Below, piece after piece: positions 2,040-2,579 of a stretch of DNA of 64,000 bases. A model generated the notes under the pieces. It was not told where the DNA came from and made no database searches. It saw only the letters and a list, made by a program, of their open reading frames with translations. Source of the stretch: a virus. Both the position numbers and the translations under genes were made by a program. The stretch spans positions 9,055 through 73,054 of IMG/VR virus record IMGVR_UViG_3300011398_000004; one strand, given 5' to 3'. How positions within the stretch are numbered: the stretch's first letter is position 1; every line of letters begins with the position of its first letter.

Positions 2040-2068
2040 AGTTTATATACGATTGCAATAATTATTAT
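2040..2068 (-). promoter_or_regulatory. conserved early promoter element TTGCAATCGTATATAAACTGTGTTACGGT (family A)
   Basis: -35 TTGCAA, 17-nt spacer, -10 TACGGT on minus strand, 40 nt upstream of ATG at 1998. Near-identical copy at 3659..3687. Confidence 0.45.
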
Positions 2069-2579
2069 TTCCTTCTAATTCTCCGATTATTGTTTTGTTC
2101 TTCATACGTCGCCCATTTGACGTTTCCTGGTTCATAATCTTTATTGTTATCTATTCTCTCTATAGTCAATTCTGAAGACGGTTTCAGTCCTACATCTTCT
2201 AAGAAATTAGAAAATTTTCTTTCCATCTATCACAAACTTTAATCCCTCGACCACCATAGTTAGGATAATCTTTGATATTAGGATTATAACATCGTTGAAT
2301 CATATTATTCCATGCTCGATGTTCAGGTGTATTAGACATCCCATGGAATTTAAATAATCCTAAATTTTCTTTTCTATGATCTAAAGAATTTCCATTAATG
2401 AAAATCCTTTTAAATCCTATTGGAGTTATCCCTAATAGAAATGTGCTAAGCGGCACAGAAGAGGAATGAATAGTATTCCATTTAGTAATATGCCATTTAA
2501 AGAGTATGACTCTTTCATAATCTTCATCATCTATGATGAAAAGGGTTTTGCTTTTATCACTAGATGGGATAAATTTCAT
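2065..2579 (-). pseudogene. HNH homing endonuclease (YGGRGIxVC...RIDNxxxYEPGNxxW family) disrupted by a -1 frameshift
   Basis: N-terminal part is ORF 2199..2579, ending ...[19 protein letters not shown]. The C-terminal half (FSNFLEDVGLKPSSELTIERIDNNKDYEPGNVKWATYEEQNNNRRIRRK*) continues in the -1 frame to TAA at 2065-2067. The junction is the run AAAATTTT at 2211-2218. A -1 slip at A_AAT_TTT restores a protein exactly collinear with paralogs 6183..6776, 11153..11497 and 19039..19809. Confidence 0.55.

Follow-up and report, generated by a model that had tools for sequence, protein, structure and literature searches.

We find that a minus-strand gene in the window (the whole stretch of 64,000 nucleotides of viral DNA analysed here) is interrupted by a -1 shift of frame, and that this interruption is very probably the outcome of a recent deletion of a single nucleotide, which would have turned an accessory HNH-like gene into a pseudogene with at most an incidental, sub-percent level of slippage. 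An earlier note on this DNA, made from the letters alone, had described a gene split by a -1 shift at an A_AAT_TTT heptamer, and had offered three readings of it: that a programmed ribosomal frameshift, or slippage in transcription, sets the nuclease dosage; that loss of 1 nt from the T run has recently inactivated the gene; or that the homopolymer was misread in sequencing. The split is confirmed in both its coordinates and its frames, and lies on the minus strand. The second reading is the one we favour, as intact homologues share the codons of the heptamer, the family is encoded in one frame, no stimulator accompanies the site, and the break falls in the middle of a domain. Events of this kind are ordinary and already known.

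The upstream reading frame (ORF A, 2579 to 2199, minus strand) encodes 126 amino acids, from an ATG that overlaps the stop codon of the upstream 252-aa gene (ATGA at 2579-2576) to a TAG at 2201-2199. It comprises a degenerate HNH_3-like N-terminal domain (residues 1-78) and the first half of a 'GRGI...' module, and it ends in ...VCDRWKENFLIS*, the last residues in the 0 frame being ENFLIS. The second half of the module is found in a frame that is -1 relative to ORF A (ORF B, 2226 to 2065, minus strand, 53 aa); it translates as MERKFSNFLEDVGLKPSSELTIERIDNNKDYEPGNVKWATYEEQNNNRRIRRK, runs SNFLEDVGL...ERIDNNKDYEPGNVKWATYEEQNNNRRIRRK, and overlaps ORF A by 28 nt (2226-2199). The junction of the two frames is the A4T4 tract AAAATTTT (2211-2218, minus strand), where the 0-frame codons of the coding strand are GAA (2219-2217), AAT (2216-2214) and TTT (2213-2211). 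The heptamer A_AAT_TTT (2217 to 2211) stands in the X_XXY_YYZ phase of the ORF A frame, as is required of a slippery site, and the 0-frame stop (TAG, 2199-2201, minus strand) comes three codons past the heptamer, that is, past ...VCDRWKENF. A -1 step after the TTT leads to a product of 171 aa, for which the predicted junction-spanning trans-frame peptide is ...DRWKENFSNFLEDVGLK... and the predicted trans-frame tryptic peptide is ENFSNFLEDVGLK. The 171-aa ORF is also restored by insertion of one T or one A at the junction, the A insertion reading W-K-E-K-F. With the T restored, the run becomes a T5, the longest homopolymer of the gene, every other run being of 4 nt or less. The gene callers of the source assemblies call exactly the 126-aa product at ORF A, and no gene is called for ORF B.

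The interrupted module belongs to a set of four copies in this phage, each of about 90 aa, with the pattern Y..W..M..RC...YGGRGI.VC..W..F..F..D.G......ERIDN...YEPGN..WAT..EQ..N.R. The partners of these copies differ, and are an apparently dead HNH_3 domain, zinc ribbons or a ribbon-helix-helix (RHH) domain. Three copies are intact: a gene of 197 aa with a zinc-ribbon-like N-terminus followed by the module (6183-6776, minus strand), a gene of 126 aa from a TTG (11117-11497, plus strand), and a gene of 256 aa with the module and an RHH domain, PF12651 (19039-19809, minus strand). Intact copies had previously been placed at 6183, 11153 and 19039; their intactness holds, but 11153 is an internal ATG of the gene at 11117-11497 rather than its start. 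The 171-aa product shares 43-56% identity with the three paralogues, with W119, F123, F126, D129 and G131 invariant, and its alignment to all three copies has no gap across the junction, in agreement with the earlier claim that the -1 product matches the intact paralogues. The window also encodes a 731-aa VapE-like (PF05272) primase/helicase-type protein (7787-9982, plus strand) and two phage-encoded tRNAs, tRNA-Leu(TAA) at 60106-60190 and tRNA-Met(CAT) at 60619-60692, both on the minus strand.

The name 'HNH endonuclease', under which this gene had first been described, stands only as a label. The split module (residues 79-171) matches phrog_3377 (3.8e-42) and phrog_374 (1.2e-39), both so labelled, but it is not recognised in Pfam, NCBIfam or PDB sequence searches, and a structure search gave only weak HNH matches. 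The same label is used in GenBank. The module is very common, with 1168 phage records there carrying it, and it frequently occurs as tandem copies or joined to zinc ribbons, HTH or RHH domains. The first His of the H-N-H motif is absent from the split module, an Arg being found instead (the equivalence was judged by eye). This residue, Arg142 (E-R-I-D), is invariant among 120 aligned members of the module family and, on a by-eye comparison of the motifs rather than a computed alignment, appears to sit where HNH_3 has its catalytic His (D-H-I). Going by these motifs, 'HNH endonuclease' is a family label here rather than a demonstrated activity.

The N-terminal domain (residues 1-78) is homologous to PF13392 HNH_3, with 43% identity (E 4e-13) to a metagenomic ORF that matches PF13392 at 36 bits, and 31% identity (E 6e-9) to the phage's own HNH_3 protein; with the Pfam models, it is below detection at E<=1. 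Ile59-Phe60 aligns with the catalytic Asp-His of both HNH_3 comparators, and the domain, which is the sole recognisable nuclease domain of the gene, looks catalytically dead. The phage's own HNH_3 protein is encoded at 10621-11058 of the source contig, just beyond window position 1; it is an intact PF13392 protein of 145 aa, with Asp-His present. A control of 'nuclease dosage', as proposed in the earlier note, is thus doubtful for a protein that has Ile-Phe for Asp-His in its N-terminal domain and whose split module shows an unvarying Arg at the corresponding position.

We then compare the junction with its counterparts in related loci. Among the family matches in the fetched DNA loci, 30 of 31 read across the junction without a change of frame, and the protein matches listed likewise have the domain in one frame. 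Relatives with an uninterrupted gene and no slippery site, which had been named beforehand as the observation that would speak against a recoding site, are thus found at the level of the family, whose norm is one uninterrupted ORF. Two intact loci (L008 and L010) encode W-K-E-N-F by the identical codons TGG AAA GAA AAT TTT, with the same heptamer in frame, and simply continue in frame 0. A_AAT_TTT is also found at neighbouring codons in family members L003, L020 and L023, and the homologous codons of the paralogue at 19039 are ...TCT TTT TCA.... The presence of the heptamer at the junction is explained because the K-E-N-F codons are common to intact homologues. Judged from these codons, the heptamer is the usual look of Glu/Lys-Asn-Phe in AT-rich codons here, and not a recoding signal.

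Close relatives of the whole gene are lacking in the collections searched. No orthologue of more than 55% identity was found in IMG/VR, metagenome contigs, GTDB genomes, GenBank phages or a set of 5.8 billion proteins. In a search for the fused protein, IMG/VR, the JGI metagenome contigs and the GTDB genomes offered relatives of 55-61% identity at best, limited to the module; the N-terminal domain has matches of its own in these collections, at up to 42%, and no protein in them has the same two-domain architecture. At E<=1e-5, 676 proteins match the fused query, and the best 120 of these mostly cover approximately 50-58% of it, a share that corresponds to the complete module. Among these best 120, only the truncated 126-aa product itself both exceeds 50% identity and takes in the N-terminus. 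A megablast of window positions 1-8000 against 50,697 GenBank phages gave no match. The flanking genes (252 aa at 2576-3334 and 130 aa at 1606-1998) identified no syntenic locus in IMG/VR, and in the IMG/VR loci that carry the module (L003-L007), the only further resemblance to the genes of this region is one weak match in L003.

Programmed -1 ribosomal frameshifting at A_AAU_UUU would mean that translation yields mostly the 126-aa protein and a set fraction of the 171-aa protein, a potentially toxic DNA-binding or nuclease-like product being kept low in this way. The arguments for such a mechanism are real ones: a canonical heptamer stands in phase at the junction, with the 0-frame stop three codons on, and the downstream half of the gene is fully intact, being part of the copy of the module that scores highest in this phage, which fits selection on the trans-frame product. 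In addition, motifs of the R_RR.U_UU.Y class, which includes A_AA.U_UU.U, are prone to shift in E. coli, efficiently so only when stimulated (PMC4066793). Heptamers devoid of a stimulator shift in E. coli at only 2-10 times the background of approximately 0.055% (PMC4066793). At the site we detected no stimulatory hairpin or pseudoknot, of the kind expected 5-9 nt past a heptamer, and no Shine-Dalgarno (SD) sequence. The 81 nt downstream of the heptamer fold with a minimum free energy of -9.6 kcal/mol (z -0.28 versus shuffles), the fold of the 161-nt context has a z of +0.17, and there is no AGGA, GGAG or GAGG within 25 nt upstream of the heptamer. The downstream stretch, in which the earlier note had suggested looking for a stimulatory structure, thus folds no better than shuffles.

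The lack of a stimulator is weak evidence when taken alone, as some phage sites work without one and the phage's own tail-chaperone candidate reaches only z -1.42. This candidate is an A_AAA_AAC heptamer (40155-40161), in frame two codons before the stop of a 144-aa gene (39733-40167, plus strand), and the z-score is that of the 81 nt downstream of it. The -1 frame past 40161 is open for approximately 100 codons, to about 40472, ending where the tape measure gene (1528 aa, 40465-45051, plus strand) begins. Its sequence context makes it a likely candidate for the -1 programmed frameshift of G/GT type in the tail-assembly chaperone, the one expected of this phage. The tape measure protein itself has an unbroken run of 12 Gly, then Gly-rich repeats near its C-terminus (approximately 44700-44800).

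We also estimated how often a heptamer would meet a junction of this kind by chance. In-frame X_XXY_YYZ heptamers number 52 per approximately 17,100 codons of the window (3.0 per 1000), A_AAT_TTT accounting for 4 of them, and the chance of finding a heptamer in a random 8-codon overlap is approximately 2.4%. When 1-nt deletions were simulated in the homopolymer runs (>=4-6 nt) of the window genes, 4-6% left a heptamer on the run. Such a heptamer is thus expected at a random junction in only 2-6% of cases, which speaks for programming, and the coincidence is generically modest evidence for a programmed reading; the codons shared with homologues remove most of it.

The position of the junction in the protein bears on the same question. 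In the AlphaFold2 model, residues 80-165 form one domain (pLDDT 96-98) and the junction (residues 123/124) lies between helices 117-120 and 123-130. Since these helices are parts of a single domain, the 0-frame product lacks the beta-beta-alpha half. According to this model it is predicted to be a half-domain, and not a self-contained short product that could act as a functional entity. The major product of a programmed shift would thus join an end in mid-domain to a catalytically degenerate N-terminal domain, a combination with no plausible function. In having X_XXY_YYZ in the 0-frame phase, a -1 continuation and a close 0-frame stop, the window site resembles dnaX (A_AAA_AAG), the IS3/IS911 transposases and the phage G/GT genes. 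Unlike these, it is without SD or hairpin/pseudoknot, is not conserved in its family, and has a short product that is not self-contained. With homologues reading through the same heptamer by the same codons, and with single ORFs in the three paralogues of the same genome and in all but one of the related loci, we regard programmed frameshifting as distinctly improbable, and the suggestion of it as unsupported.

A broader form of this idea is that the frameshift is kept by selection, either through a low, fixed and unstimulated -1 slippage or through a T4/T5 switch in the population, with traces of a full-length HNH-like protein that binds or nicks DNA. We consider this highly improbable. Among the papers listed in our literature search, none joins 'HNH endonuclease' with 'programmed ribosomal frameshifting'.

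Two further mechanisms could in principle give function to the split gene. Transcriptional slippage on the A4 or the T4 would restore the frame in some of the mRNAs, and the junction does lie within homopolymer runs, which is all that recommends it. Productive transcriptional slippage in bacteria involves runs of approximately 9 A or T (PMC5009743), and the runs here, of 4 nt each, are far below this length. We therefore rejected this part of the first reading on the ground that the runs are too short, and its probability is close to nil. Alternatively, the two halves might be translated separately, ORF B from the ATG at 2226, to act apart or to reassemble. This ATG does open the -1 frame inside the overlap, but the nearest SD-like sequence, a GAGG, is approximately 17 nt upstream of it, which is too distant, and separate initiation of ORF B was rejected for want of a usable SD. 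The break also lies inside a compact domain, ORF B is reported by no gene caller, and the arrangement is absent from the family members in the fetched loci. A functional split gene is thus very improbable.

The frameshift might instead be an artefact of sequencing or assembly, the true genome having a T5 (or an A5) and a single intact ORF of 171 aa. Errors of this sort typically take the form of a one-base change within a homopolymer, and no decay whatever is seen in the out-of-frame half. Across the site, however, the window sequence is matched at 100% identity by both an ENA megahit contig (ERZ27267659, 64,284 bp) and a Logan contig (1,929 bp, SRR6262718), and a third source, the JGI contig of 73,054 bp, is recorded with the same truncated 126-aa product. 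An exact look-up of this product returned only ENA ERZ27267659 and Logan SRR6262718, those of ORF B and of a 243-aa upstream product returned no record, a look-up of the protein cluster told nothing further about samples, and no intact 171-aa variant is present among 5.8 billion clustered proteins. JGI, ENA and Logan may share one read set, in which case their agreement is perhaps not independent. A run of 4-5 nt is not error-prone in a short-read consensus. The agreement of the assemblies rules out a quirk of one assembler, a systematic read error at a run of 4-5 nt is unlikely, and the homopolymer error that had been envisaged as the third reading is accordingly unlikely. Another ENA contig (ERZ27267766 k141_46728, 878 bp) encodes exactly the 130-aa downstream gene and ends 2 nt upstream of it, just short of the locus; this break could reflect low coverage, or variation in the presence of the HNH-like gene within the sample.

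We thus return to a deletion as the best explanation. One base pair would have been lost from a short homopolymer, most simply by a change from T5 to T4 in ...GAA AAT TTT TCT AAT TTC... (alternatively, from A5 to A4). The gene affected would be an accessory one, probably selfish or dispensable, HNH-like, and one among four paralogues. The deletion would have shifted the second half of a compact domain of approximately 90 residues out of frame, and normal translation would now give a 126-aa protein that ends in mid-domain and is probably non-functional. The degenerate N-terminal domain is a separate sign that the gene has lost activity. A_AAT_TTT would not have been selected for recoding, being what AT-rich DNA uses to encode Glu-Asn-Phe, and the A/T runs behind its slippery look would equally favour deletion by replication slippage. 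A -1 slip by a small fraction of the ribosomes, probably less than 1%, may incidentally give some full-length protein.

That this is a real mutation, that it went in the direction of a deletion, and that it is recent are all things we infer. The event would be recent because the out-of-frame half keeps every conserved residue of the family: the fused module scores 145 bits against phrog_3377, the highest of the four paralogues (121-135 for the intact copies). An undecayed out-of-frame half fits either a very recent deletion or continuing selection.

Disruption of this sort has precedents in the homing-endonuclease-like genes of phages. Of the 268 HNH endonuclease genes in 89 Skunavirus genomes, 56 are present as truncated remnants (PMC12724721). 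The window gene resembles the degenerate free-standing homing-endonuclease-like genes of the lactococcal Skunavirus (PMC12724721) and the defunct I-TevIII of T4 (PMC2790892) in being a multi-copy accessory HNH-like gene. It also shares with such genes that one copy is disrupted and the paralogues are intact, that the disruption is idiosyncratic, and, here, that the catalytic Asp-His is lost. Unlike the partial deletions of Skunavirus, the lesion in the window is a single-base frameshift with both halves intact, which points to a very recent event. None of the terms for degeneration that were looked for occurs in a review of homing endonucleases (PMC3943268).

A closer parallel comes from the Staphylococcus phages of the genus Sextaecvirus, S-CoN_Ph11 and S-CoN_Ph12 (OR354834 and OR354835), which carry the same module of approximately 90 aa at approximately 59% identity. 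Their gene is annotated as two CDSs through 1-nt indels in short A runs, at a position that differs per isolate; compared with the window, the indels are at other positions and no slippery heptamer is present. At one place the difference is A5 versus A4, at another AA versus A, each isolate being intact where the other is broken. The indels may have arisen by mutation, or the records may contain sequencing errors. The split gene adjoins a DNA polymerase gene in both (OR354834 60794-62461 and OR354835 55836-57502). By analogy, the Sextaecvirus and Skunavirus cases are a precedent for sporadic disruption of such genes.

The trace of full-length protein that might arise here calls to mind the 'savior indel' G-run mutants of herpesvirus thymidine kinase (Atkins et al. 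2016, PMC5009743), in which an indel in a homopolymer likewise inactivates the gene and slippage could give traces of the full-length product. Unlike in those mutants, the run is of 4+4 nt instead of 7 G, and there is no sign here of a selective benefit from the indel or from a trace product.

If the frameshift were after all selected, it would mark the first description of programmed recoding in a homing-endonuclease-like gene. A programmed site would add a new class of genes to phage recoding, and would suggest dosage control of selfish nucleases. On the ordinary reading that we favour, the right annotation for the locus is that of a pseudogene, an accessory HNH-like gene with a frameshift, rather than that of a recoding site. 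More generally, where a slippery heptamer seems to mark a frame junction in AT-rich phage DNA, homologues need to be consulted, as intact relatives carry the same heptamer here.
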